This document shows, in pieces, positions 27,434 to 45,171 of a stretch of 64,000 nt of DNA; position 1 is the stretch's first letter, and the number at the start of each line of letters is the position of its first letter. The translations under genes were made by a program, and so were the position numbers. Under the pieces are notes generated by a model. The model did not search any database and was not told where the DNA came from. It saw only the letters and a list, made by a program, of their open reading frames with translations. Source of the DNA: Candidatus Poribacteria bacterium. Its GTDB lineage: Bacteria; Poribacteria; WGA-4E; PCPOR2b. The DNA lies in NCBI GenBank assembly GCA_965116925.1, contig OZ220744.1, positions 4,864,001 to 4,928,000 on the forward strand, written 5' to 3'.

Positions 27434-28231
27434 ATGAACCGAAATCAGCCGCCCAATAAATCAACCGAAATCCAGATCCCGTTCCCGGGACTCCGATACA
27501 TCGGGGGAATCCCGTTCATCATTATGATGCTGCCGATGCTTTTATGCTTGGGAGTGCATTGGGGTTGTGCCTCGTCGGTAACGCGAGTCCCGATCAAAAT
27601 TCAGGTTGAATCCACAATTGATGTCACTAAGTATTCAGGTTTTGCTGTGCTGCCATTTATCGAAGCGAAGGAATCAGGGAGGCAGCGGATAGCATCTTCC
27701 GATGATACAGGGGAAGAGATTGCATCCTTGATGCGAATTGGATTGGGACGGAATCAAAATTTGGATGTTGTTGGCACACAGGATACGCTGCGGCTATTTA
27801 CTGATGAAACAGTTAATGAGGATCTGTTGGCGGATGTGTCAGAGTTGGTGCGTATTGGTGAGTATTTTGAAGTAGATGCAGTCATTGTTGGCAGTTATGA
27901 TTTTTTTGCGATGAGCCAACCTAGACGCTACTATGGGGAACGCTATTCGAGAAGACTTCAGAGGTATGTCACCGATTATCAGGATTACCTCGAAAAGACC
28001 TACATCCTTTCGTTGAGGATTGTAATTGCTAGTGTGGACACAGAGGAAATTATACAGGATGACACGTATGAACGGCGTGCGTTCCAAGCCCATAGCGTTA
28101 GTTCATTCTTGATCTCAGAAGTCGCGCCAAATCAGGGTGTTCTAAAGAGTTTAGCGCGACAAGCGATTTCGGAGTTTACCCGACAGGTTTCACCGCACTA
28201 TGAACAAGAGGAAAGGTTTTTGATGAGATGA
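27434..28231 (+). CDS. Putative lipoprotein, possibly CsgG/TolB-N-like alpha/beta fold
   Basis: Hydrophobic stretch ending WGC; FAVLPF and IG....VDAVIVG patterns. Confidence 0.5.
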   Translation: MNRNQPPNKSTEIQIPFPGLRYIGGIPFIIMMLPMLLCLGVHWGCASSVTRVPIKIQVESTIDVTKYSGFAVLPFIEAKESGRQRIASSDDTGEEIASLMRIGLGRNQNLDVVGTQDTLRLFTDETVNEDLLADVSELVRIGEYFEVDAVIVGSYDFFAMSQPRRYYGERYSRRLQRYVTDYQDYLEKTYILSLRIVIASVDTEEIIQDDTYERRAFQAHSVSSFLISEVAPNQGVLKSLARQAISEFTRQVSPHYEQEERFLMR

Positions 28232-31128
28232 TGAAAACCGATCACGGCTATCACATATTGAAAATGCAATGCTCTGAAAAGGAGAGATTTTTGTCTCGTT
28301 TTCTCGTTTTCTCGTTTTCTCTCCTGTTTGTTTTCTTCTCGGTTGGCAGCGGTTGGGCACAAGGTTTTGGTAAAAATAAGGTCACGGACCAAGATTTTGA
28401 TTGGCTGATTCACCGGACAGAACATTTTGATATCCACTATTATCCGGGTGAAGAGCAGTTAGTCTCCATCATGGCGGATATCGTCGAAGAGGCTTACGAA
28501 AAACATAGCGAGGATTTTGAGCACGAGCTTAAGGATCGGACGCCGCTCATCTTATATCAATCACACAAAGATTTTCAAGAGACCAACATTACGCTGGCTG
28601 AACTGCACGAAGGCGTTGGCGGGTTTGCTGAGCTCTTTAAGCGACGTATGGTTATCCCTTTTACAGGCTCAATGTCTGCATTTCGTGAGGTTATCTTTCA
28701 CGAACTGGTTCACATCTTTCAGTATGACATCATCTATCAGAAACCCGCCGGACGTTTTTATAGCGGTGAGTTCCTGTATAGTCCTCCAATCTGGTTTATG
28801 GAGGGAACGGCAGACTACTTCGGTAACGATAATGATGCCGTTGGTGAGATGGTACTCAGAGATGCAAGCATCGCGAATCAAGTGGTTCCACTGACGCGGC
28901 TTCAAGATTTTCGGATACTCGGATCGCAGGTATTTTTGGGATATAAGATAGGTCAGTCCGCTGTCGCCTACTTTGTTGAGACGTATGGACGGGATAAGGT
29001 TGGGCAGGTCATGCAGGAACTGCGCCATATCCGGACCAAGGATCTCAACCAAGCCTTCCAAAATGTGATTGGCGTTAGCCTTGAACAGTTCGATAAAGAG
29101 TGGCGTTTGACGGTGCAGAAGAAGTATTGGCCCATGATTGAGCACAAGGATATGCCAAACTCGATTGCTAAGAACCTAACAGAGAAATCGCGCTACTCGC
29201 ATAACGTGAAACCGATCTGGTCTCCGAGTGGTGACGTTATCGCCTATATCACAGGCAACGATGGATTTGGTGAAATTGTCCTTGCGTCTGCTAGGGACGG
29301 CAGCCGCTTAGAGCGGATTAGTAAAAATTTTTTCGGGAGTAAATATGAAGATATTCGGAGCGATGGCAGTGGGTTAGCTTGGTCCCCGGATGGCGACCGT
29401 ATTGCTTTCATTGCCAAGTACCGGGAATCGGAGTATCTGCTTGAAGTGAACATTATCAGTAAGCAATTGGAACGGCGAATCAAACTCGACTTCGACGCTG
29501 CCGGTTCACCGAGCTATGATGGTAGCGGCGAGCGGGTTGTTTTTTCCGCACTAAGCGGAGGCCAGACCGACCTGTTTATTATAAACCTAGCGACCGAGGA
29601 GTTGATACGCCTGACAAACGATTCCTTTGACGATAGTAATCCTTCATGGCATCCAACGAAGGAAGAGATTGCCTATGCCTCAGAGCGCGGAGGTAAGTAC
29701 AGGCTAATTATCATTGACGTTAGCAGTCGGAACTCCCGGCAGTTGCCGCATGGTGAGCATAATGCGGTTGGTCCTCGCTGGGCACCGGGCGGTGAGGAGT
29801 TGCTTTTCTGTTCGGACATCGGTGGTGTCTATGACCTGTGTACTATGCGATCGGACGGCACAGACCTGACGCGTTTGACCAATATTATTACTGGCTGTTT
29901 TAACCCAAGTTTTTCACCGGACCGCAAGCACATCCTGTTTGGTGCTTACGAATCGGGGAAGCAGGATGTGTATGTCATGGAGGCGGAGAAGGCGCGTAAT
30001 GAAAAGATTGAGATACCGTCTCCTGAATCTGAACCAACTCGATTTGTCGGTACTGCGGAAAGGAAACAGCGCCGAATCGGGCACCGGAAGTACGGCACGA
30101 AAATTGGCTTAGATGCTATTTTTACCAACTTCAGTCTTGGTGCTGATGGTTTGCTGCGCAACTCAACGGAACTTGTCGCAAGTGATATGATGGGGAACCA
30201 CCGTCTAGGGTTGAGCGTTCAGAATCAATCAGGATTCCTTGCTCCGGATTTTATTGCCCAGTACGGTTCCCTTGCGCGTCGTGCTGATTTTGGTGCCTCT
30301 CTCTTTAACTTTCATGAATATCACCTGTTGGGGACGACCCGGAATCGTCGCCGCGTCTCGCAACGTTTAACGGGAATTGCTGGCTCCGCGATGTATCCGT
30401 TCAATCGGTATCGCCGCGTGGAGTTACAGTTGTTGATGTATTCTACCCCTTATGCTTTCAGATTCGAGACAGAGCGCGAAGATAATCGTGGGCTTCTAAT
30501 GCTTGGAACGCTCTCTCTCGTTAGCGACACGACGCGCTGGCAGATATTCGGCCCCCAAAGTGGTACCCGTTATAATCTCACCTTTGAAAAGTCATTTCGT
30601 GCGACTGGCAGCGATCTCGAACTGACCAATCTCGTTTTTGATTTCCGCCGTTACTTTAAGCTGGGCAGACGTTCGACCTTTGCAACTCGCCTGCTGCTCG
30701 GCGGCAGTTTCGCAAGGGACAAGTCGCTGTTCTACCTCGGTGGCATTGACACGCTACGTGGCTATAGTTATGAAGAATTGATTGGGACGCGGATGGGGCT
30801 GTTGAACTTTGAGCTTCGGATTCCGTTTATAGACGAACTTCGTTTCGGTTGGCCCTTTTCGTGGGCGATTGGCGGCATTCGCGGGATTATCTTTGCTGAC
30901 TTCGGAACAACATGGTCGGAGGAGGAGTTCAACTCTGACAACCCCTACTACCTGCTCCGGCGTGAGGGCAACCGGGTTCGCCTTGATGATGTCAAAGGCT
31001 CAATTGGCCTTGGACTTCGATTGCAGCTTGGCTTTTTCTCCCTCGACTTTGACGTGGCACGCCGCACCGATCTGGCTAGTATCGATCCGGATACGACGTT
31101 CCACTTCGGTTTGGGTCAAGCGTTTTAG
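28228..31128 (+). CDS. Omp85-superfamily protein: zincin-like peptidase domain + PD40/TolB propeller + C-terminal BamA/TamA-type barrel
   Basis: Signal peptide; HELVH..WFMEG; WSP repeats; FYLGG..TLRGY lid motif; C-terminal FHFGLGQAF. Confidence 0.85.
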   Translation: MMKTDHGYHILKMQCSEKERFLSRFLVFSFSLLFVFFSVGSGWAQGFGKNKVTDQDFDWLIHRTEHFDIHYYPGEEQLVSIMADIVEEAYEKHSEDFEHELKDRTPLILYQSHKDFQETNITLAELHEGVGGFAELFKRRMVIPFTGSMSAFREVIFHELVHIFQYDIIYQKPAGRFYSGEFLYSPPIWFMEGTADYFGNDNDAVGEMVLRDASIANQVVPLTRLQDFRILGSQVFLGYKIGQSAVAYFVETYGRDKVGQVMQELRHIRTKDLNQAFQNVIGVSLEQFDKEWRLTVQKKYWPMIEHKDMPNSIAKNLTEKSRYSHNVKPIWSPSGDVIAYITGNDGFGEIVLASARDGSRLERISKNFFGSKYEDIRSDGSGLAWSPDGDRIAFIAKYRESEYLLEVNIISKQLERRIKLDFDAAGSPSYDGSGERVVFSALSGGQTDLFIINLATEELIRLTNDSFDDSNPSWHPTKEEIAYASERGGKYRLIIIDVSSRNSRQLPHGEHNAVGPRWAPGGEELLFCSDIGGVYDLCTMRSDGTDLTRLTNIITGCFNPSFSPDRKHILFGAYESGKQDVYVMEAEKARNEKIEIPSPESEPTRFVGTAERKQRRIGHRKYGTKIGLDAIFTNFSLGADGLLRNSTELVASDMMGNHRLGLSVQNQSGFLAPDFIAQYGSLARRADFGASLFNFHEYHLLGTTRNRRRVSQRLTGIAGSAMYPFNRYRRVELQLLMYSTPYAFRFETEREDNRGLLMLGTLSLVSDTTRWQIFGPQSGTRYNLTFEKSFRATGSDLELTNLVFDFRRYFKLGRRSTFATRLLLGGSFARDKSLFYLGGIDTLRGYSYEELIGTRMGLLNFELRIPFIDELRFGWPFSWAIGGIRGIIFADFGTTWSEEEFNSDNPYYLLRREGNRVRLDDVKGSIGLGLRLQLGFFSLDFDVARRTDLASIDPDTTFHFGLGQAF

Positions 31129-31193: not shown

Positions 31194-34100
31194 ATGCAAC
31201 CAAACTTGACTCGATTTATTATTGTTGCTGTTGTTTTGGCGGTAATCATTAGCGCAGGCGCAATCTTCGTTAAAATCTATCCTGACCTGCTCTGGTTTAA
31301 TATGGTCGGCTATCTCGCCATTTATAAAAAAGTGCTACTGACAAAAATAGGTCTGGGAATTGCCGTCAGTGGTTTCTTTCTTGCCGTGACCCTCATCAAT
31401 CTCTATCTCCTGTATCGCTTTACCCCACCTCGGTTGAGTCCAACACTCGTCGAATCGATCCCGCTTGAAGGTATGCCCGATTTTAACCTCCGGAAAGCTG
31501 TTTATGTGATACTGACACTGCTTGCTATTGGAGGGAGTATTGTGGGGGGGTATGCTTCGACAGACTATTGGGAGCAATTCCTCCGCTATTCAAATGCGAG
31601 CGATCTTTCCTTCCAAGCCGCGACATCGCTTGATGCAGCAGCAAATCGAGATGCGACAGATGTCCTCATTTCTGAATTGGAGTATAGTGCGAAAGGACTT
31701 AGAGTAGGAGATGAGATTACAATCAAAGAAGGGGATAGCAGTCATACAGCACAAATCCGCTCCATCAGTCCGGGCGGGGAGGGGAGCGTTAGGGTCGTCC
31801 TAAATCAAGGGCTTAGTTTCGATGCAACCGAAGACGCAGTTTTGGTCGCAGCTGCCCGTGATCCAATTTTTAATAAGGATGTCAGCTACTATGTTTTTCG
31901 GATGCCCTTGGAACGCTTGATTTGCGGCTACCTATTCGGTCTATTTATGCTGGTGACCCTTTTTACAGGTGTGCTTTACTTTTTTCACGGATTACTTATC
32001 AATGATGATAACCGCTTTGCACCGCCACAGCGCGTCAGGACGCATCTGTTCATCTTGATTGGTTTGACACTGCTGTTTCGTGCTTGGAATTACCAGTTTG
32101 TGATGTACGACCTGCTCTACACGACCAACGATGTTGTGCGGGGCGGCGGCGGTTATGCAGCGATACAGGCACGGCTGCCCGTGTTATGGATACTGCTCGC
32201 ACTTACTGTCATCTGCGCGTTGATTTTTTTTATCAGCATTTTTTTAAAGCGTATTTCGTTCGCTGTTGGTAGCGTTATCGTTCTTGTACTTGTTGCCTTT
32301 ATGGGACAAGCCTATCCTCGTATCGTTCAAAACCTGAAAGTTGAACCGAGTAAGCAGGAACTTGAGGGTAGATATATTAATTATAACATCAGGGCAACAC
32401 TGCACGCTTATGATCTGGAGGATAGTACCGTGACCGAGACGGAGTATCCTCTGACGGGGGAACTGTCTTATGATAATATCACGGGGCAGGAAAATGCAGC
32501 AGTAATTAACAGCATCCGGCTTTGGGATTGGCGGCCGCTGCGTCGCACTTTCCGTCAGCTGCAGGAGTTACGTTCACAATACGATTTTGCTGACGTGGAT
32601 ATCGACCGTTACCTGATGGAAAGTGGTGAACCCCGGCAGGTGATGCTCTCTGGGCGTGAACTCAATATTAACGATTTGCCGCGTGAGGTAAGCCGGGACT
32701 GGTTTAAGCGCACTTATGTCTACACGCACGGCTACGGCGCGGTGATGAGTCCTGTGAATGAAATTCTGGACGGAAAGCCGAAGATGTACATTCGGGATAT
32801 GGACCCAATTAATTACGAACCTGAATGGGCATATCGGTTTAACGACAATCCGGGACCTCGAATTTACTACGGTGAGCGTACTAACCACTATGTCATTGTC
32901 CATCCAGATCGGTCAGAGGGGCTTGAGTTTGATTACCCCGAAACGTTTGGACAAGATTTTGCCAAATACTCGTACCAAGGGGTAGGCGGTGTCGATCTTT
33001 CTTCGTTCATCCGAAAATTTGCGTACATGCTGAAATTTAATAACGCACTCAATTTCATCTTGCCCGGCGAAATCCGACCAACCAGTCGTGTCCTCTACAA
33101 CCGGAACATAAAAGAGCGTGTCAGCCAAATCGCTCCATTCCTGAAATATGATAACGACCCTTATCTTATCATCCACAACGGTCGGTTAATTTGGATGATC
33201 GATGCGTATACAACGACCGCGCGTTATCCTTATTCCGCGCCGATGCAGGATGCCATCCGCAGAACCATTATGGAACAGGGTGGCAGACGCGCTGCTGGGC
33301 GTATCGTCGGCGGCGAAAGACCGTGGGGTAATTATATCCGCAACGCTGCCAAGGTCACGATTGATGCCTACGACGGCAGCGTGAACTTCTATCTGATGGA
33401 GCAGGAGCAAGATCCGGTTGCGGAGTGTTATCGTCGTATCTTCCCAGATTTATTCAAACCGTTCGATGCGATGCCCGAAGATCTCAAATCGCATATCCGA
33501 TACCCGACCACGATGTTCCTCATCCAAGCGCGGATGTATCAGGATTATCACATGAAAGATCCGATTACTTTCTACGCGAGTGAAGATCAGTGGCAGATCG
33601 GTGAGGAACTGTACGATAACACTGAGCGTCCTCGTCCCCCACAGGTGCCGCAACCGCCAAGTCCATTCGCACGTACCCAGCAGCTGCCGGAAACGGTCAC
33701 AAATGTGCAAGAGGTTGCCCCTTACTATGTGGTCGTCAAAATACCGGGAGAGGAACGCGCGGAATTTGTCTTGATGCTCCCGTTCACGCCGAAAAACAAG
33801 CCGAATCTCACCGCTTGGATTGCTGCGAGATGCGATTTACCGCAGTATGGACAGCTGCTCGTCTATCGGTTTCCAAAAGGCAAACTCGCCCCCGGGCCGA
33901 TGCAGGTGGAAAACTTCATCACACAAGAGCCCGAAATTTCCCAGCAGATTAGCTTGTGGAATACGCAAGGTTCACGCGTCCTGCGCGGCAACCTACTTAT
34001 CATCCCGATGAATGAGGCGATCCTCTATGTTGAACCGATCTACATCCAAGCTGAGAACGAAGAGTCTGCGATTCCCGAATTGCGTCGCGTTGTTGTTGGC

Positions 34101-34382
34101 TATAAGGAAAATGTCGCATGGGGTGCGAGCCTTGATGAGGTGTTGATTAACATGTTCGGCAAGCGGTTGGAGGTTGCGATGACGCAAAAAAGCACTGATG
34201 ATGAAGCTGCTGAAGGGGTGAGTGCAGCCATCTCGGTATCCACTTCGACACTGGCAAAACAGGCGCGAGAGCAGTTTGAGGCGGCACAAACAGCGCAGCG
34301 CACAGGGAATTGGGCGGAATATGGACGTTACCTGAATCTGCTCGAAGCGACCTTGAAGCAGCTTGAAGCGGATGCTAGATAA
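31194..34382 (+). CDS. UPF0182 family membrane protein
   Basis: LWF...GY, DPIF..D...Y.F, IRLWD, YTHGYG, PRIYYGE, DPYL and GNLLIIP..LYVEP motifs. Confidence 0.92.
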   Translation: MQPNLTRFIIVAVVLAVIISAGAIFVKIYPDLLWFNMVGYLAIYKKVLLTKIGLGIAVSGFFLAVTLINLYLLYRFTPPRLSPTLVESIPLEGMPDFNLRKAVYVILTLLAIGGSIVGGYASTDYWEQFLRYSNASDLSFQAATSLDAAANRDATDVLISELEYSAKGLRVGDEITIKEGDSSHTAQIRSISPGGEGSVRVVLNQGLSFDATEDAVLVAAARDPIFNKDVSYYVFRMPLERLICGYLFGLFMLVTLFTGVLYFFHGLLINDDNRFAPPQRVRTHLFILIGLTLLFRAWNYQFVMYDLLYTTNDVVRGGGGYAAIQARLPVLWILLALTVICALIFFISIFLKRISFAVGSVIVLVLVAFMGQAYPRIVQNLKVEPSKQELEGRYINYNIRATLHAYDLEDSTVTETEYPLTGELSYDNITGQENAAVINSIRLWDWRPLRRTFRQLQELRSQYDFADVDIDRYLMESGEPRQVMLSGRELNINDLPREVSRDWFKRTYVYTHGYGAVMSPVNEILDGKPKMYIRDMDPINYEPEWAYRFNDNPGPRIYYGERTNHYVIVHPDRSEGLEFDYPETFGQDFAKYSYQGVGGVDLSSFIRKFAYMLKFNNALNFILPGEIRPTSRVLYNRNIKERVSQIAPFLKYDNDPYLIIHNGRLIWMIDAYTTTARYPYSAPMQDAIRRTIMEQGGRRAAGRIVGGERPWGNYIRNAAKVTIDAYDGSVNFYLMEQEQDPVAECYRRIFPDLFKPFDAMPEDLKSHIRYPTTMFLIQARMYQDYHMKDPITFYASEDQWQIGEELYDNTERPRPPQVPQPPSPFARTQQLPETVTNVQEVAPYYVVVKIPGEERAEFVLMLPFTPKNKPNLTAWIAARCDLPQYGQLLVYRFPKGKLAPGPMQVENFITQEPEISQQISLWNTQGSRVLRGNLLIIPMNEAILYVEPIYIQAENEESAIPELRRVVVGYKENVAWGASLDEVLINMFGKRLEVAMTQKSTDDEAAEGVSAAISVSTSTLAKQAREQFEAAQTAQRTGNWAEYGRYLNLLEATLKQLEADAR

Positions 34383-34558
34383 GCATGAAAACGTGAAAAC
34401 GAGGGGACGTGAAAACGGGAGAAACAGCGGGTGCGCAAGTGAGCGAATGTGCTTCTCACTTTCTTGTCCTGTTGCTCCCTTGTTATCTCGTCATGGCGCA
34501 ATGACGCGATGAACGAATGAACTAATACACTAATGAACTAACGAAGGAGGTGAACTAC

Positions 34559-34804
34559 ATGGGACTCGATTGGAAACCACGTCATCGGGATATGCTTATT
34601 GGCGGATACTGGTGGTTGGCACGGGTTACGGATAAGGCGCGTGCCAAATTGAACGGTACTATCGGTGAGTACATCTACCCGTGACCGCAGGACAAAAAGT
34701 TCCTGGAGGAACACAAGCTAGATGCTGACGAGTTCGTTGAGATGGTCAAAAGCAATCCGTCAGACGATGATATGATCGCCGCGATGCAAAAGCTCAATCG
34801 ATAG
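34559..34804 (+). CDS. DUF5069-like small protein with in-frame TGA at codon 42; candidate selenoprotein, 81 aa
   Basis: AAGGAGGTGA RBS; MGLDWKPRHRDMLIGGYWWLARVTDKARAKLNGTIGEYIYP-U-PQDKKFLEEHKLDADEFVEMVKSNPSDDDMIAAMQKLNR*; family resemblance continues past the TGA at 34682-34684. Confidence 0.8.
34699..34712 (+). promoter_or_regulatory. Candidate bacterial SECIS hairpin
   Basis: gttcc-TGGA-ggaac; 19 nt between the TGA and the loop; G among the first two loop bases. Confidence 0.5.
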
Positions 34805-34954
34805 GAAACGCAGATCTGCGTTCCGTACAGAAATAGTGAGTAGGAGAGCGGGCAGCGATTTCCCCGAGACATCAGGATTTCGCTGCGCTCAACCTGCTCT
34901 GACTTCCAAAAATATATCTCAGATTTAATAACATAAAACGGAGAATCAGTCTCA

Positions 34955-37462
34955 ATGAAAAAAACAACCTTGTTTACTTTTATGCTATTGTTGGTCTCTG
35001 CACTACTTCTATCAAATAGCTTCGCGCAAGAAAATCCGCAGTGGCAGCTGCCTGATGGTGCCAATGCGCGTTTTGGCAAAGGCTGGATATCTGCACTTGA
35101 CTATTCGCCCGATGGCACCCGGTTAGCAGTTGGCAGTCCCATTGGTATCTGGCTATACGATACGACAACCCTTCAAGAGGTTGACCTGCTCACCGGGCAC
35201 ACGGAAACAGTCTCTACTATCGCATATTCTTCGGATGGGACTATACTCGCCAGTGGAAGTTACGATGATACCATCCAGCTATGGGATACCGCAACGGGTG
35301 AGAGTATCAATACTCTGACTGGACATGAGGACAGCGTGTTGAGCATTGCCTTCAGTCCGGACGGAAAAACCCTCGTCAGTGGAGGCTACGACGATACCGT
35401 TCGCCTGTGGGATGTCGACACCGGCGAAAATATCAACACCTTTACCGAACATGAAGATTGGGTCTCTAGTGTTGCTTTCAGTCAGGCTGGGGATATGATT
35501 GCCAGCGGGAGTTGGGACCAGACCGTTCGCGTTTGGGATATTGCTACAGGCGATAACCTCCATACCTTTACCGAACATACGTCTCTCATTACAACAGTCG
35601 CTTTCGGTTGGGGCGGCACACTCGCTAGTGGAGACTATGATGCGATGATTCATCTGTGGAATGTTAAAACAGGTGAGAAAATCAGAACTCTCACTGGGCA
35701 TACCTCAACTATCTACGAGGTTGTCTTTTCTGCGGATGGAGGTATATTGGCAAGCGCGAGTGAGGATGATACTATCCGCCTGTGGAATGCTGTCACGGGT
35801 GAGACAGTCAAAACCTTTACTGAACACGCTGCTGATGCCTACAGGGTTGCGTTTAGCCCGGATGGCAGCACCCTTGCCAGTGGAAGCGGGGATGCGACCG
35901 TCCGTCTGTGGGATGTTGACACCGGCGAGAGTGTTGGCACCATTACCGGACATGAGAGTCGTGTCCTGAGCGTTGCTTTCGGTCCGGGAGACCGCACACT
36001 CGTTGGTCGGAGTTGGGATCAGACCATCCGTGTCTGGGACACCGAAACCGGAGAGCGTCAACATTTGCTCGTGGGACATACGGACGACGTAGACATTGTT
36101 GTTTTCAGTCGGGATGGCCGTAAGATTGCTAGTGGAAGTCAGGACAATACCGTCCGCTTGTGGGATGCTGAGACTGGCACACACTTGAAAACCCTCGTCG
36201 CGCATTGGGCTTATATTATAACCATCGCTTTCAGTCCCGATGGTACGCTCCTCGCTAGTGGAAGTGAGGACGATACTGTTCGTTTGTGGGATGTCGCCAC
36301 CGGGGAGCGTCTGGGACGGCTTTGGGGACATTATGCTGGTGTCGAGACGCTCGCTTTCAATCGCGATGGCACCCTCCTCGCTAGTGGGAGTCGAGACGCG
36401 GTCATTACCCTATGGGATACCGCCACTAGGGAGTGGCTGCACTTTCTCTTTGGTCATCGTGGCCATGTTCTCACCGTTGCTTTTAATCCGGATAGTACAA
36501 TCCTTGCAAGTGGAGGCTGGGACAATACCATCCGTTTGTGGGATGTCGCCACCGGGGAGGAGATGACAGTTATTCAAGCAAGCGAGTATGGTGTAGAAAA
36601 TGTTATTGAGAGCGTTGCTTTCAGTCACGATGGAAAGACTCTTGCAGCCGGAGGGTGGGGTAATGCAATTGGCTTGTGGGATGTTGCAACAGGTGAGCAT
36701 ATCGAAACCTTTACCGGACACGCCTCTAGGGTTGAGAGCGTTGCTTTCAACTCCGATAGTACAGTCCTCGCAAGTGGAAGCCGGGATGGCACGGTGTTGC
36801 TATGGGCTGTTCCACAACCACCGCCAGAGCCCGTGGAGCCACCGCCCGCACTCGTCGAGGATGTCAACGGGAATGGAGTGGTCAACATCTTGGATTTAGC
36901 ACTCGTTGGCTTGCGTTTGGGACAGATAGGTGAGAATGATGCCGATGTCAACAGGGATGGCGTTGTGGATATTGCGGACTTGGTTCAGGTCGCTGGGGCT
37001 ATCGCCAACGCGGCAGCAGCACCTTCGGTGCAGCCTATAGCATTGGCGAACCTTACCTCCAAAGATGTCGAGGGATGGCTTACCCAAGCACAAGTGTTAG
37101 ATCTAACGGATGTCCGTTCACAAAGGGGAATCCTTTTCCTTGAACAACTTCTTGCAACATTGGCTCCGAAAGAGACAGCACTCTTGCCTAACTTTCCCAA
37201 CCCGTTCAACCCGGAGACGTGGATCCCTTATCAACTCGCCACCGATGCTGATGTGACCCTCACGGTCTATGACACAAAAGGCACACCGGTGCGACAATTC
37301 GATTTGGGACATCAGTCCGCAGGATTCTACACTACTCGGACAAAAGCTGCTTATTGGGACGGGCGCAACGAAACCGGCGAATCGGTCGCAAGTGGAGTCT
37401 ATTTCTATCAACTTCAAGCAAGTGATTATACTGACTTACGGCGGATGGTGATTCTCAAGTAG
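34955..37462 (+). CDS. Secreted WD40-repeat protein with dockerin-like and FlgD/T9SS-CTD-like C-terminal domains
   Basis: Signal peptide; ~13 GH...W(D/N) repeats; DVNGNGVVNILDL/DVNRDGVVDIADL; NFPNPFNPETWIPY...WDGRN..GESVASGVYFY. Confidence 0.9.
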   Translation: MKKTTLFTFMLLLVSALLLSNSFAQENPQWQLPDGANARFGKGWISALDYSPDGTRLAVGSPIGIWLYDTTTLQEVDLLTGHTETVSTIAYSSDGTILASGSYDDTIQLWDTATGESINTLTGHEDSVLSIAFSPDGKTLVSGGYDDTVRLWDVDTGENINTFTEHEDWVSSVAFSQAGDMIASGSWDQTVRVWDIATGDNLHTFTEHTSLITTVAFGWGGTLASGDYDAMIHLWNVKTGEKIRTLTGHTSTIYEVVFSADGGILASASEDDTIRLWNAVTGETVKTFTEHAADAYRVAFSPDGSTLASGSGDATVRLWDVDTGESVGTITGHESRVLSVAFGPGDRTLVGRSWDQTIRVWDTETGERQHLLVGHTDDVDIVVFSRDGRKIASGSQDNTVRLWDAETGTHLKTLVAHWAYIITIAFSPDGTLLASGSEDDTVRLWDVATGERLGRLWGHYAGVETLAFNRDGTLLASGSRDAVITLWDTATREWLHFLFGHRGHVLTVAFNPDSTILASGGWDNTIRLWDVATGEEMTVIQASEYGVENVIESVAFSHDGKTLAAGGWGNAIGLWDVATGEHIETFTGHASRVESVAFNSDSTVLASGSRDGTVLLWAVPQPPPEPVEPPPALVEDVNGNGVVNILDLALVGLRLGQIGENDADVNRDGVVDIADLVQVAGAIANAAAAPSVQPIALANLTSKDVEGWLTQAQVLDLTDVRSQRGILFLEQLLATLAPKETALLPNFPNPFNPETWIPYQLATDADVTLTVYDTKGTPVRQFDLGHQSAGFYTTRTKAAYWDGRNETGESVASGVYFYQLQASDYTDLRRMVILK

Positions 37463-37592
37463 ATGCATTAATTGGCGAAAGAATCCGGGGGTCGCTAAAA
37501 AACTCGGATTCTGAATCTAAGCCATCTTTCGCTCATTTGCCATGTATTTGGGGTTCTGCAAAACGGATAATCAAAAAGGAGAATTAATCTCA

Positions 37593-40127
37593 ATGAAAAG
37601 GATAGTGTTTTTTAGCCTTACTTTATTATTTTTCTCTGCTCTATTTCTATCAAATAGCTTCGCCCAAAATAATCCGCAGTGGCGGTTACCCGAAGATGCG
37701 ATTGCGCGATTCGGTAAAGGGTGGATAGCTGGAATTCAGTATTCGCCTGATGGCAGTCGGCTCGCAGTCGCGACCGCCATCGGTATTTGGCTCTACGATA
37801 CGGCAACCCTTCAAGAAGTTGACCTACTTACCGGGCAGACCGCAATATATGAAAATACGACGTATTCGCCATCTTCTATCGCGTATTCCCCGGTTGAGGA
37901 TATACTTGCCAGTGGGGGTTGGGATCGAGTTATCCGTCTGTGGAACACCACTACGGGTGAGGATATTAAAACTTTGACCGGGCATGAGAGTGGTATTCGA
38001 AGCCTCGCTTTTAGCCCGGATGGAAAGATTCTGGTAAGTGGAAGTTACGACGATACTGTTCGCCTGTGGGATGTTGACACCGGTGAAACCGTTCATATCC
38101 TTTCCGAACATACGGACCGGGTCAACAGCGTTGCTTTTAGCCCAAATGGGGATATGATCGCTAGTGGGAGTTGGGATCAAACTGTCCGCCTGTGGGATGT
38201 AGCTACGGGTGAACTCATTAGAACACTCACCGGACATACCTCTCTCGTCCGGGCGGTTGCCTTCAGTTCGGATGGGGACATGGTCGCTAGCGGAGACTAC
38301 GACGCAATGATCCACTTATGGGATGTTGATACGGGTGCCCCCATCAAAACACTCACCGGACATACCTCTCTTATTTACGATCTCACTTTTTCAGCTGATG
38401 GCATTCTAGCGAGTTCAAGCGAGGATGACACCGTTCGGCTGTGGGATGTTGATGCTGGTATGACCATTCACACCGTAATCGAACATACGGCAGATGTCAA
38501 TCAGGTTGCGTTTAGCCCGGACGGTCGTACACTCGTAAGTGGGGCGTGGGACTCTTCTTTCCGCCTGTGGGACGTTGACACGGGTGAAAATATCGAAACT
38601 GTCACTGGATTTGCGGATGTTGTCTTGAATGTTGCGTTCGGTCCGGATGGGCGCGTACTTGTCGGTCGGAGTTGGGACAGTACCATCCGCCTGTGGAATA
38701 ACGAAACAGGAGAGCGCGAGCACTTCCTTTTTGGGCATACAGACGATGTGGACATTGTTGCGTTTAGTCCGGATGGACATACACTTGCTAGTGGCAGTGA
38801 TGATGATACGGTCCGCCTGTGGGATGTTGACACCGGGGCACACCTGAAAACGCTTGTTGGGCATAGTTCCTATATTATAAGCGTCGCTTTTAGCCCCGAT
38901 GGTAGCATGGTTGCGAGCGGAAGCGAGGATGATGACGTCCGCTTGTGGGATGTCGCCACCGGGAAGCGTTTGAGAACCCTCCGTGGACATGGGACAGGTG
39001 TTGAGAGCCTCGCTTTCACTTCCGATGGAAAGATCCTCGCAAGTGGAAGTCGAGATAGTACTGTTCGTCTGTGGGATGTTGAAACAGGGGAAACTCTGCA
39101 CGTGCTTGGAGGACATTACCTTCATGTTCTGACCGTTGCTTTCAGTCCCGATGACAAGACTCTCGCCAGTGCCGGGATAGATACTATCATTCGTCTGTGG
39201 GATGTTGACACCGGTGAGGAAGTGCTAGCCATTGATAGGGAGGTTCATGGTGTTGAGAGCGTGGCTTTCAGTCCTGATGGAAAAATTCTTGCAAGTGGGG
39301 CGTGGGATGATACGGTTAGTTTGTGGGATGCCACCACCGGTGAGTTATTGAAAACCTTCATCGGGCATTCATCTAGCGTTGAGAGTGTTGTTTTCAATTC
39401 TGATGGTACTACTCTTGCCAGTGGGAGTTGGGACGGCACGGTGCTTCTGTGGAATGCGACACTTCCACCACCCCCCGAGGAGCCACCGCCACCTCCCATT
39501 GTCGAGAAGGACCCGCCGGTTGAGGATGTCAATGGGAATGGGGTGGTCAATATCTTAGATTTAGCACTCGTTGGATTACGCTTGGGACAGACGGGGGAGA
39601 ATGATGCTGATGTCAACGGGGATGGCGTTGTGGATATTGCGGACTTGCTTCAGGTCGCCGGTGCTATAGGCAACGCGGCTGCTGCACCTGCTGGACATTC
39701 CTTGGCACTGACCAATCTGACCCCCGCCGATGTTGAGAGTTGGCTCACTCAAGCACAAGGGTTAGACCTAACCGATATGAGAACGCAAAAGGGGATTCTC
39801 TTCCTTGAACAACTCCTTGCAGCACTGGTTCCGCAAGAAACAGCACTCTTGGCAAATTACCCCAACCCGTTCAACCCGGAAACGTGGATTCCGTACCAAC
39901 TCGCCCGCGATGCCGACGTGACGCTCACAATTTATGATATGAAAGGCACACCGGTGCGACAATTCGATTTGGGGTATCAGTCCGCAGGATTCTACACCGC
40001 CCGGACGAAAGCAGCCTATTGGGACGGACGCAATGAAATCGGCGAATCGGTCGCAAGTGGAGTTTATTTCTATCAACTTCAAGCCGGCGATTATGCTGAG
40101 TTACGACGCATGGTAATTCTTAAATAA
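37593..40127 (+). CDS. Tandem paralog: secreted WD40 + dockerin-like + FlgD/T9SS-CTD-like protein
   Basis: Same architecture and highly similar to 34955-37462; AAGGAG RBS before ATG 37593. Confidence 0.9.
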   Translation: MKRIVFFSLTLLFFSALFLSNSFAQNNPQWRLPEDAIARFGKGWIAGIQYSPDGSRLAVATAIGIWLYDTATLQEVDLLTGQTAIYENTTYSPSSIAYSPVEDILASGGWDRVIRLWNTTTGEDIKTLTGHESGIRSLAFSPDGKILVSGSYDDTVRLWDVDTGETVHILSEHTDRVNSVAFSPNGDMIASGSWDQTVRLWDVATGELIRTLTGHTSLVRAVAFSSDGDMVASGDYDAMIHLWDVDTGAPIKTLTGHTSLIYDLTFSADGILASSSEDDTVRLWDVDAGMTIHTVIEHTADVNQVAFSPDGRTLVSGAWDSSFRLWDVDTGENIETVTGFADVVLNVAFGPDGRVLVGRSWDSTIRLWNNETGEREHFLFGHTDDVDIVAFSPDGHTLASGSDDDTVRLWDVDTGAHLKTLVGHSSYIISVAFSPDGSMVASGSEDDDVRLWDVATGKRLRTLRGHGTGVESLAFTSDGKILASGSRDSTVRLWDVETGETLHVLGGHYLHVLTVAFSPDDKTLASAGIDTIIRLWDVDTGEEVLAIDREVHGVESVAFSPDGKILASGAWDDTVSLWDATTGELLKTFIGHSSSVESVVFNSDGTTLASGSWDGTVLLWNATLPPPPEEPPPPPIVEKDPPVEDVNGNGVVNILDLALVGLRLGQTGENDADVNGDGVVDIADLLQVAGAIGNAAAAPAGHSLALTNLTPADVESWLTQAQGLDLTDMRTQKGILFLEQLLAALVPQETALLANYPNPFNPETWIPYQLARDADVTLTIYDMKGTPVRQFDLGYQSAGFYTARTKAAYWDGRNEIGESVASGVYFYQLQAGDYAELRRMVILK

Positions 40128-40341: not shown

Positions 40342-41433
40342 ATGAAATTGGAAGATTACCGCGATTTGCTGGATCAGATTGATAATAAGATTTTAGCCCT
40401 CTTACAGCAACGGGCAACTATTGTCAAGCGTGTCGGTGAGCTCAAATCGAGCACCGGTGTTGAACAGATTTATGCGCCACATCGAGAGCGGGAAATTCTC
40501 TCCCGGTTGGAAACGCAGAATCGAGGACAATTCCCCTCCGATGCGCTACACAAGATTTATACCGAAATTATCTCTGCCTGCCGTGCGCTCGAAAGACCGT
40601 TATCCATCGCCTTCCTTGGTCCTGCTGGTAGCTTTGGTCACACGGCGGGTTCGCATTTTTTTGGCACGTCAGTAGAATTTATCGCGGTAACACCCCAGCC
40701 CGACATTTTTACAACGGTCGAGTCCGGTCAAGCCGATTACGGCGTTGTCGCGATTGAAAACTCCACGCACGGAACAGTCCGTGATGTTTTAGAGATGTTC
40801 CAGTACACAAATCTTCAAATTTGTGGGGAGTGCTTTTTACCAATCAAGCAGCATCTCCTCTCAAAATCTCCGCTATCAGAAATTAAAAAGATTTACTCCC
40901 ATCCGCAAGCATTTGCACAATGTCGTCAATGGCTAGGTCACAATATGTCAGGTGTACATCAAATTGAGGTTTCTAGCACGTCAGAGGCAGCGGAATTGGC
41001 TGCCAGCGAACCAAATGCAGCAGCAATAGCGGGGCAACTCGCCGGTGACATTTATGGACTATCTGTGGTAGGTGCATCAATCATGGATGGACCAAACAAT
41101 ACGACGCGCTTCCTTGTTATTGGAAGCCACTCGGCAGCACCAACTGGAAATGACCGAACATCTATCATTTTCTCGGTTAAGGATAAAATTGGCGCGTTGT
41201 CGGAGGTGCTGGAGGTGTTGAAAAACTATGGAATCAATATGAGCAAGATTGAGTCTCTGCCCTCCCGCACCAAAGCGTGGGAGTATGTTTTCTTTGTAGA
41301 CTTGGATGGGCACGCGGAAGACGAAAATGTCCGAAAAACACTCGCAGAGATCAGGGAGTTGTGCGTGATGATGAAAATTCTGGGGACTTATCCGATTGGG
41401 GAACAGGGTGAGGAGGTATCTGGTAAATTCTAA
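40342..41433 (+). CDS. pheA: Chorismate mutase / prephenate dehydratase
   Basis: ID.ID..I..LL..R chorismate mutase domain; LGP.GSF, ENSTHG, SHPQA, NTTRF; ACT domain. Confidence 0.95.
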   Translation: MKLEDYRDLLDQIDNKILALLQQRATIVKRVGELKSSTGVEQIYAPHREREILSRLETQNRGQFPSDALHKIYTEIISACRALERPLSIAFLGPAGSFGHTAGSHFFGTSVEFIAVTPQPDIFTTVESGQADYGVVAIENSTHGTVRDVLEMFQYTNLQICGECFLPIKQHLLSKSPLSEIKKIYSHPQAFAQCRQWLGHNMSGVHQIEVSSTSEAAELAASEPNAAAIAGQLAGDIYGLSVVGASIMDGPNNTTRFLVIGSHSAAPTGNDRTSIIFSVKDKIGALSEVLEVLKNYGINMSKIESLPSRTKAWEYVFFVDLDGHAEDENVRKTLAEIRELCVMMKILGTYPIGEQGEEVSGKF

Positions 41434-43756: not shown

Positions 43757-45171
43757 GTCAGTTACCCCGCCCTGAAGGGACGGGGCTTGTTTGAAGCGTC
43801 CGCCCAACGGGTCTTACAAAGTTTCGCGCTTCTGTCCCCTGACGGGGGATTTCGGGGTCGTTTGCAACCGACGCACCTCCACGCAAGGCTACAGCAGCCT
43901 TTTTGATATTTATCGCGGCGTTATGGTCTCTATTGAGGACCAACCCACAATGGGGACAATCATGGAGACGATCCGACAACTGTTTAGGCACAACTTCATT
44001 ACAACCGGAGCATTTCTGACTGGTATGGTGAGGCTTCACTTTCGTGAACTGCTTGCCGGCACTTGCAGCCTTGCTTTGCAGTTTCAATCGAAAGCTACCC
44101 CAGCCCGCGTCAGATATACTCTTGGCGAGGTAGTGGTTCTTCAACATATTGGTGATGGTCAGATTCTCTACAGCGACCTCATCACATCGTTCAAGGATAC
44201 GATGGGCTGCCTTGAACTGAAAATCCTTGCGCTGATTCGCTATCCGTTCATGGCAACGGGCGACAATCTCACGTTGTTTTGCTCGGCGGCGGCTCCCCTT
44301 TTTGCGGCGAGACAATACGCGTTGATGTTTGCCAAGTCGCTTTTCAGACTGACGATAATGGCGGGGGTTGGGGATATGTTCGCCATCCGAATCTACGGCA
44401 AACGAGTTAAGTCCCACATCTACGCCAATCGTCGTGTGGACAGGGACTTCTATAGGATCTGGCACTTCGACGCAGATAGTTACATACCAACCGCTGGCTC
44501 GCTTGATGACCGTCAGATTCTTGATGTTGCCATCGGCTAAGGGGCGGTGATAACGGATCTTGAGGTGTCCTATTTTCGGAACAACGACTTTGGCAAACTT
44601 ACGATGTACACTCCGGACCAGATGCTTGGACAGGTGGCTAAAGGTCATTGACCGGTATCGCCCTTCGCCTTTGAAGCGGGGGAAGCCCGGTGCCGCCCCG
44701 TTCTTGGCACGGCGGAAGAATGCTTTGTACGCTTTATCCAAACGGCGCATCGCATCTTGGAGAACATCCGCGTGAAGTCCTGCATAAGCCTTGGAGGCTG
44801 CTTTCAAGTCAGGTAAGGCGTTAGCTTGGGTCGTCCATTTGACAGAATCGTTATTTCGCTGGTAAGCGTCTATCCGCCACGCTAACGCTTGATTGTAGAG
44901 ATTTCTCAACAAGGCAAGCCAAACCAAAAAAGTATGTCGCTGTTTCGTCGTAGGATAGGCGCGATATTCATAACTCTTTTTCATAGGGGTTAGCTTTCTG
45001 GCTTTCATTCCTTTTCTACGAGGTGTAGGGGACATCCCGAAGGGTTCGGGATGGTAGAAATCCCCTACGAAAGCCATAAGAACTGTACCATATTTCACAC
45101 AACTTTTCAACGAAAAAGGAGCGCAGTTTCCTCCCCGCTCTAAAGAACGGGGTCTCCACTGCGAAGAGTTG
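43757..45171 (-). mobile_element. IS200/IS605-family element carrying only tnpB (IS1341-like)
   Basis: Left end (minus) TTCAT|caactcttcgcagtggagaccccgttctttagagcggggaggaaactgcg; right end aagccccgtcccttcagggcggggtaactgac; no tnpA inside. Confidence 0.85.
43758..44984 (-). CDS. tnpB: RNA-guided endonuclease TnpB
   Basis: YEYRAYPT HTH; GFPRFK; RuvC GVDVG, AVENL and RDHNAA; CSGC/CPHC zinc finger; probable ATG 44984. Confidence 0.95.
   Translation of the reverse strand: MKKSYEYRAYPTTKQRHTFLVWLALLRNLYNQALAWRIDAYQRNNDSVKWTTQANALPDLKAASKAYAGLHADVLQDAMRRLDKAYKAFFRRAKNGAAPGFPRFKGEGRYRSMTFSHLSKHLVRSVHRKFAKVVVPKIGHLKIRYHRPLADGNIKNLTVIKRASGWYVTICVEVPDPIEVPVHTTIGVDVGLNSFAVDSDGEHIPNPRHYRQSEKRLGKHQRVLSRRKKGSRRRAKQREIVARCHERIANQRKDFQFKAAHRILERCDEVAVENLTITNMLKNHYLAKSISDAGWGSFRLKLQSKAASAGKQFTKVKPHHTSQKCSGCNEVVPKQLSDRLHDCPHCGLVLNRDHNAAINIKKAAVALRGGASVANDPEIPRQGTEARNFVRPVGRTLQTSPVPSGRGN

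Follow-up and report, generated by a model that had tools for sequence, protein, structure and literature searches.

A probable short-form DUF5069 selenoprotein gene with a conserved intragenic SECIS-like hairpin in Candidatus Poribacteria

We analyzed a 64,000-nt stretch of a Candidatus Poribacteria genome (assembly GCA_965116925.1, contig OZ220744.1, positions 4,864,001 to 4,928,000 of the forward strand), hereafter called the window, in whose coordinates positions are given unless a genome or locus is named. Positions 34559-34804 (+) hold an 81-codon gene followed by a TAG, with an in-frame UGA at codon 42 (34682-34684, +) that is probably read as selenocysteine (Sec, U) in the context Y-I-Y-P-U-P. 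This region is real and conserved, one gene and not two, and very probably a selenoprotein gene, and it encodes a short form of DUF5069 that consists of the N-terminal module only. Its product is very probably an 81-residue cytoplasmic selenoprotein in which UGA 42 is decoded as Sec by means of a downstream bacterial Sec insertion sequence (bSECIS) hairpin, together with SelB and Sec-tRNA(Sec). The in-frame UGA is conserved, its position is occupied by either Sec or Cys among homologues, coding constraint acts on both sides of it, a hairpin is linked to the TGA, and the genome carries the Sec machinery.

The reading frame had been proposed in an earlier note made from the letters of the window alone, and it agrees exactly with them: an ATG at 34559 is followed by 41 codons, the TGA at 34682, 39 further codons, and a TAG at 34802-34804 that closes the read-through frame at 81 residues. 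The strong ribosome-binding site described there was also confirmed, as a Shine-Dalgarno sequence, AAGGAGGTGA, at 34544-34553 (+), which is separated from the ATG by a 5-nt spacer. No start codon of its own was found for the downstream half near the TGA. TGA terminates 15 of the 38 open reading frames (ORFs) of at least 250 aa in the window, indicating that it is an ordinary stop codon in the source genome, and several orthologues of the Sec gene also use TGA as their terminal stop.

Conservation was analyzed at the level of the order in 61 orthologues from 15 genera, with identities from 99% down to 64%. The ATG, a Shine-Dalgarno-like motif and the TGA at codon 42 occur in 61/61, the context being Y-(I/V)-Y-P-U-(P/A), and a GGAGGTGA-type motif precedes the aligned ATG in nearly all. 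Within the phylum, an orthologue at E up to 1e-12 was present in 168 of 176 genomes, with exactly one TGA in every row shown. Hence, the TGA is not private to this assembly, a possibility that had been left for comparison with relatives. The named relatives are all Candidatus Poribacteria metagenome-assembled genomes (80/80 of the loci compared, out of 393 confirmed stretches). A metagenome scan ranked on a member with 51% identity yielded 80 loci, of which 59 have TGA, 19 have a Cys codon (TGC or TGT), and 2 lack the motif. Over 1472 pairs of sequences below 85% identity, the ratio of non-synonymous to synonymous differences (pN/pS) was 0.197 for codons 2-41 and 0.272 for codons 43-82, at pS values of 0.76 and 0.77, respectively. 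Since the family match described below and purifying selection both run across the TGA in the same frame, the downstream half is constrained as protein.

The residue that stands opposite the UGA in other family members was determined by a HMMER search of 1.84 billion representative sequences, which gave 354 matches at E up to 0.001 and 169 aligned stretches from the best 150. Position 42 is Cys in 124 of these stretches, Ser in 22, Trp in 1, and another residue in 14; the remaining 8 are calls that end at residue 41, and the lone Trp stems from a code-4 gene call. The TGA therefore falls on the conserved Cys of the family, as had been supposed in the earlier note, and the same Cys is found in the DUF5069 structure 3omd. 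Public protein entries stop at ...YIYP (including P0015, P0016, P0026, P0027, and P0030), run to full length with W42, where the TGA was read under code 4 on short contigs, or carry a true Cys (P0009, P0013, P0014). One Cys short form, from Chloroflexota, is named 'DUF5069 domain-containing protein'.

The read-through product matches Pfam PF16798 (DUF5069) with an E-value of 1.9e-16 and a score of 60.9 bits (cut-off 27). As the match extends from residue 7 to residue 78, it does cross the TGA, as predicted for the joined halves, and the DUF5069 motif given in the earlier note is confirmed. This match covers profile positions 4-75 of 133 and hence not the full domain; the 81-residue form has no counterpart of the C-terminal half that the paralogues and 3omd possess. 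The protein is accordingly filed as a short-form subfamily of the DUF5069 superfamily and not as a full-length member. In other organisms, the N-terminal module also occurs in natural fusions, with Cupin_2 (three proteins), a methyltransferase, DUF2249, a CO-dehydrogenase flavoprotein C-terminal domain, and dienelactone hydrolase, which indicates that it is self-standing. Four further DUF5069 domains, in three proteins and without an internal stop, are encoded in the source genome; two of them have a Cys near the Sec position, and both domains of the tandem protein lack one. A scan of the product against NCBIfam models returned 0 families at E up to 1.

An AlphaFold2 model based on 134 aligned sequences (predicted local distance difference test score [pLDDT] 86.1, predicted template modeling score [pTM] 0.73) shows a short beta-hairpin and helices at 20-32, 43-51, 56-65, and 69-80. 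In the model, U42 lies immediately ahead of helix 2, the near-invariant R22, D25, K26, and R28 lie on helix 1, and D45 is on helix 2. Foldseek matched the model to 3omd with an E-value of 4.5e-4, a template modeling (TM) score of 0.85, and a root-mean-square deviation of 1.0 A over 73 columns, and VIA-align gave a Z score of 12.9 over 79 residues. The sequences match as well (E 1.2e-14), with the Cys of Y-N-C-P-L-D in 3omd opposite the TGA. No other fold relatives were found by Foldseek (next E 2.8) or VIA-align (next Z 3.5), a result that does not establish a new fold. The product has no Cys besides the Sec position and no UxxC or CxxU motif; with its predicted beta-hairpin and four helices, it does not belong to the thioredoxin-fold or CxxC-type redox selenoproteins.

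The candidate SECIS hairpin, GUUCC-UGGA-GGAAC, is encoded at 34699-34712 (+), with its stem at 34699-34703/34708-34712 and its apical loop at 34704-34707. It had been placed 19 nt downstream of the TGA; this distance holds for the start of the loop, whereas the stem begins after 14 nt. The 14-mer occurs once in the window, where 0.01 copies are expected by chance, and once in the 6.47-Mb genome. Among the 61 orthologues, the F-L-E-E codons hardly vary (TTC in 61, CTG in 60, GAG in 61, and GAA in 60), and pS across these four codons is 0.03 vs. 0.77 nearby. Other invariant residues vary over 2 to 6 codons, such as L20 with six and F60 with TTT in 36 and TTC in 25. When 106 distinct sequences from Poribacteria were compared, the loop was TGGA in 106/106, with a spacing from the UGA of 19 nt in 102 sequences and of 22 nt in 4. 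Their core pairs vary only by G-U wobbles, except for pair 5, which is G-C in 103, A-U in 2, and G-U in 1. Of two outer pairs, one is formed in 70/106 and the other in 65/106, and the stem extends to 7 bp in many relatives.

The hairpin follows the TGA and not the family as a whole. In a fixed register, the five core pairs and a UGGA loop at 19 nt were found in 41 of 47 distinct TGA forms and in 0 of 17 Cys forms. The best local hairpin had a median of -11.5 kcal/mol in TGA forms vs. -9.8 kcal/mol in Cys forms (one-sided Mann-Whitney p 0.0036, a value that overstates the difference, given that the sequences are related). A formal count of base pairs was made on 111 distinct sequences from several clades, with 7 pairs and 500 shuffles. 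Pairing was seen in 89.8% of cells vs. 78.1 +/- 0.9% in the shuffles (0/500 as high), two-sided changes in 76 cells vs. 31.5 +/- 3.6 (0/500), involving three pairs, and the covariation score was 0.259 vs. 0.092. Slid registers gave pairing of 26-66% and scores of 0.092 or less. The changes are distributed over pair 18-31 (GC 89, CG 18, with A-U in 2 further Poribacteria sequences), pair 17-32 (UA 48, AU 19, GU 16, GC 9), and pair 16-33 (AU 48, CG 11, GC 3). Since the swap from G-C to C-G joins the third base of the codon ahead of Phe to the first base of the codon following Glu-Glu, it cannot be attributed to protein constraint.

As restated in a recent review, the bSECIS model calls for an apical loop of 3-9 nt, an upper stem of 4-16 bp, and a G in the first two loop positions; the loop should start 16-37 nt after the UGA, and the minimum free energy should not exceed -7.5 kcal/mol (PMC13188914). 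The present hairpin has this geometry, with a 4-nt loop, a stem of 5-7 bp, a G at loop position 2 followed by another G, and a spacing of 19 nt. In its geometry, the candidate hairpin fits the bacterial SECIS model, with an energy that is borderline in this genome. The earlier note had argued as much for a loose form of the model, and the argument is strengthened by the covariation and by the absence of the hairpin from Cys-codon relatives.

Several observations weigh against the hairpin as a SECIS. It is small here, with 5 bp and -5.7 kcal/mol alone, and the limit of -7.5 kcal/mol is reached only with flanking pairs, the enforced hairpin having -7.6 kcal/mol over 45 nt and -8.2 kcal/mol over 50 nt. 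This limit is reached over 48 nt by 44 of 45 distinct orthologues, the outcome depending on the stretch chosen. The hairpin lies outside the single-sequence minimum-energy fold of 34682-34741 (z -0.91), and only 30 of 50 orthologues have it in their own minimum-energy fold. In 6 of the 47 TGA forms, another hairpin occupies the same place. The core pairs are near-constant in Poribacteria, most of the covariation comes from other, related clades, and for related sequences the shuffle test (0/500) overstates. A lower stem (columns 7-11 with 38-42) that was considered found no support, as 39.8% of cells pair. A competing CAGGA/UCCUG pairing was also considered and rejected, its 5' arm being variable among relatives. 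Over 34300-35000, Rfam gave chance-level matches only (E 2.2 to 6.3), and a promoter scan of the same interval found none.

A clade of the EWKPRGR type (L242 and L247 vs. L229, L233, L236, and L237) holds both Sec and Cys forms. The hairpin of its Sec forms is another one, GGUUUCU...AGAAGCC, whose loop is GGA or larger; the family may thus contain SECIS elements that arose separately or were remodelled.

The genes for Sec synthesis and insertion named in the earlier note, selA, selB, selC, and selD, were all found in the source genome. The tRNA-Sec scored 76.6 bits (cut-off 47), SelA 532 bits, and the SelB wing domain 71.5 bits, and these genes are clustered at 2.374-2.377 Mb. SelD scored 369 bits, and its gene has an in-frame TGA of its own in C-G-U-A-A-K (G000:C1:6018631-6019551, L018). 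The SECIS of this selD gene combines a stem of 7 bp with a GUUG loop of 4 nt that starts 17 nt after the UGA. Across the phylum, SelA was detected in 163 of 176 genomes. One family (f5; three genomes that are 76, 95, and 92% complete) has SelA in 0/3, SelB in 0/3, and the Sec gene in 0/3. Two other families (f10 and f11) have SelA and SelB, and the Sec gene was not found in them with the P0001 query, which gave no match in the five genomes of families f5, f10, and f11.

Alternative explanations concern how the UGA is read and what the hairpin does. It is conceivable that the UGA is read through with Trp, Cys, or another residue by a near-cognate or suppressor tRNA and that the hairpin merely slows the ribosome or aids read-through. 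In other systems, read-through can be stimulated by a hairpin that follows the stop codon. We infer Sec insertion at codon 42, and some findings in the phylum count against it: ten other genomes, 61-95% complete, have the gene without a SelA match, which is also a point in favor of non-Sec read-through, and family f5, which lacks the gene, shows borderline tRNA-Sec hits (47-50 bits at the 47-bit cut-off). Non-Sec read-through is nonetheless unlikely when set against the complete Sec system of the genome, a hairpin whose loop, G position, and spacing are those of the bSECIS model and which resembles the selD element of the same genome, and the exact placement of the UGA on a Cys kept in 124/169 stretches, which is the classical Sec/Cys signature. 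Moreover, the sole well-assembled lineage without SelA and SelB is also without the gene, and TGA closes 15/38 of the long ORFs of the window.

Termination at the UGA would leave a 41-residue peptide, with the downstream 39 codons as a decaying remnant or untranslated sequence. Public gene calls that end at ...YIYP are in line with this, and some termination at Sec UGA codons is normal in bacteria. A decaying or untranslated segment would not be expected to show purifying selection in the same frame (pN/pS 0.27 at pS 0.77), to match the Pfam profile and 3omd while lacking a start codon of its own near the TGA, or to be closed by a conserved stop in 61 orthologues. The TGA has also been kept through the whole depth of the phylum and beyond, unlike a nonsense mutation, and termination as the sole outcome is thus very unlikely. 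As for the hairpin, it could be a minus-strand terminator, a repeat element, or a by-product of the conserved F-L-E-E peptide. A consensus scan does call a minus-strand terminator-like GTTCCTCCAGGAAC followed by TTTTTG; that scan gave a single site at a chance expectation of 0.6, the site does not lie at the end of any minus-strand gene, and the 14-mer is single-copy in the genome, unlike a repeat. Conservation of the peptide can neither freeze four synonymous third positions nor yield G-C/C-G swaps, and Cys-codon relatives with similar peptides (FLEK, FLER, FLQE) are without the hairpin (0/17). Taken together, these findings make a role other than that of a SECIS extremely improbable.

Some support for transcription of the Sec gene comes from contigs from RNA libraries (sponge metatranscriptomes of two studies) that span the TGA and the hairpin, for example X1 at 34646-34767 and X6 at 34653-34803, and for which no difference is listed at the TGA. 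Such contigs may include DNA, a limit that counts against the functional assignment below; they lend weak support, for transcription only. Contig depth was greater over the Sec gene than over its neighbors, depth being a measure that can neither rank genes nor give an expression level.

By the mechanism we propose, UGA codon 42 would be decoded as Sec, with GUUCC-UGGA-GGAAC serving as the bSECIS that would recruit SelB with Sec-tRNA(Sec) to the ribosome. The Sec residue would cap the N-terminus of helix 2, in place of the Cys of Y-P-C-P, and would lie beside R22, D25, and K26 of helix 1. Such an arrangement, in which conserved basic residues adjoin a nucleophile at a helix N-cap, is characteristic of reactive thiols and selenols. 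Sec may therefore be the nucleophilic or redox-active residue, and since the protein has no second Cys, a single-selenol mechanism with an external thiol or partner would be expected. The chemistry could be redox or the transfer of a sulfur- or selenium-containing group. From the model, we infer a selenol-based redox or transfer role; the redox or metal-binding role suggested in the earlier note is likewise putative. This functional assignment has points against it, namely the same lack of a second Cys in the protein, the presence of Ser in place of Cys in 22 of the 169 family stretches, and the fact that no conserved redox partner was seen nearby. A broader proposal, which we put forward tentatively and regard as rather doubtful, is that DUF5069 is an unrecognised single-Cys/single-Sec catalytic class with an orphan fold. 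Its Sec form might be a near-universal core selenoprotein of sponge-symbiont Poribacteria and of several marine lineages, with lineage-specific partners (UPF0182 and PheA in Poribacteria, an upstream phosphotransferase of the APH/choline-kinase fold elsewhere), and might perform a selenol-dependent small-molecule modification or redox step that no known selenoprotein family performs.

The gene resembles the bacterial bSECIS genes read by SelB, of which E. coli fdhF is the prototype, in its in-frame UGA with an intragenic stem-loop immediately downstream, its 4-nt loop with G at position 2 and then another G, its 19-nt spacing, the presence of selA, selB, selC, and selD, and the existence of Cys homologues. 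It differs from them in that the hairpin is close to the minimum size that the model allows (5 bp), the loop and core stem are unusually invariant across clades, and the host family is not among the 119 families and subfamilies tabulated in the review (PMC13188914). The sole solved DUF5069 protein, 3omd (Leptospirillum rubarum, 145 aa), has the same fold and the motif R-x-x-D-K-x-R-A...G-E-Y-x-Y-P-C-P-x-D; the present protein is distinguished from it, and from DUF5069 generally, by Sec in place of Cys and by the presence of the N-terminal module alone. Predicted single-Sec selenoproteins such as DUF523, DUF1858, DUF3179, and the hypothetical proteins DG/DW/DF share with it the Sec/Cys pairs, TGA homologues in other Sec users, and a bSECIS-like structure (PMC12013277, PMC13188914). 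In contrast to these, it belongs to another family and fold and has no UxxC/CxxU and no second Cys.

The family was supposed in the earlier note to be undescribed as a selenoprotein family, and it is indeed absent from the catalogues checked. Table 1 of the May 2026 review, which lists 119 prokaryotic families and subfamilies, has no entry for PF16798 or DUF5069, and the NF-coded families of that table are covered by the empty NCBIfam scan of the product (PMC13188914). The text of the BSepDB supplement contains neither 'DUF5069' nor 'PF16798', and DUF5069 is not among the new families in the article on deep-Sep, whose supplements were not searched (PMC12013277). Within the library searched, no paper on DUF5069 was found, nor one on 3omd from Leptospirillum or on this family as a selenoprotein of Poribacteria. 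It is thus a probable selenoprotein family missing from the catalogues checked, and the decoding mechanism would be the known bacterial one.

These findings would add a widespread family to the bacterial selenoproteome, one whose members public gene calls truncate at residue 41 or provide with W42. Since proteins employ Sec almost exclusively where catalysis or redox chemistry takes place, the UGA points to the Cys of Y-P-C-P as the functional center of DUF5069, and with the crystal structure 3omd already at hand, the function is directly testable. The Sec gene is a likely reason that nearly all Poribacteria keep the costly Sec machinery. Additionally, the uniform hairpin, with its UGGA loop at 19 nt, provides a clean natural example for SECIS models and annotation pipelines.

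Gene neighborhoods were compared over 81 loci, consisting of the window and L090-L169. A gene for a UPF0182 membrane protein (31194-34382, +; Pfam PF03699, E 7e-240) precedes the Sec gene in the window with a gap of 176 nt, and the UPF0182 cluster lies directly upstream on the same strand in 80/81 loci, the window included. Ahead of UPF0182 is a gene (28228-31128, +) for an unusual protein of 966 aa in which a peptidase-MA-like domain and PD40/DPP-IV beta-propeller repeats are fused to an Omp85 barrel at the C-terminus; an Omp85/PD40/peptidase-MA gene occupies this position in 76/81 loci. On the other side, a PheA-type gene (chorismate mutase/prephenate dehydratase/ACT; 40342-41433, + in the window) directly follows the Sec gene in 60/81 loci, and QueG is found in 48. 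The same order, with PheA after the gene, was seen in 9 metagenome loci (7 Sec, 2 Cys). The window has two large tandem WD40-repeat genes (34955-37462 and 37542-40127; 835 and 861 aa, with ~13 repeats each) between the Sec gene and PheA, which is directly next in most other Poribacteria.

Outside Poribacteria, an unannotated gene of the APH/choline-kinase fold was found directly upstream on the same strand in 23 metagenome loci (14 Sec, 9 Cys), forming a conserved gene pair (for example L215:1368-2489 and L235:1409-2479, with 21 further loci among L202-L248). One of six members tested reached Pfam APH, with 28 bits, and K56, E75, D211, N216, and D237 are invariant. When the model of this protein (pLDDT 91.6) was compared with the PDB, 369 matches had an E-value of up to 0.001, with APH(2'')-IVa and LicA ranking first. 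Carrying this kinase pairing over to Poribacteria was considered and rejected, as the source genome has only a weak homologue, located elsewhere (E 2.3e-4). These neighborhoods are leads and not evidence of function, and co-transcription with UPF0182 is putative.

Directly after the stop codon of the Sec gene, the palindrome AACGCAGATCTGCGTT at 34807-34822 resembles repetitive extragenic palindromic (REP) elements. It is dispersed in the genome, with 138 copies at no more than 1 mismatch vs. 0 for the reversed control, and its fold has -9.5 kcal/mol (z -1.6). The element is not specific to the Sec gene, and it may serve as a 3' end or as a stabilising hairpin. Some RNA-library contigs that derive from elsewhere match the AACGCAGATCTGCGTT piece alone. 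Further downstream, the minus strand at 43758-45110 carries a TnpB-like gene of 450 aa (HTH_OrfB_IS605, OrfB_IS605, and a Cas12f1-like TNB domain), which represents an IS605-family element.

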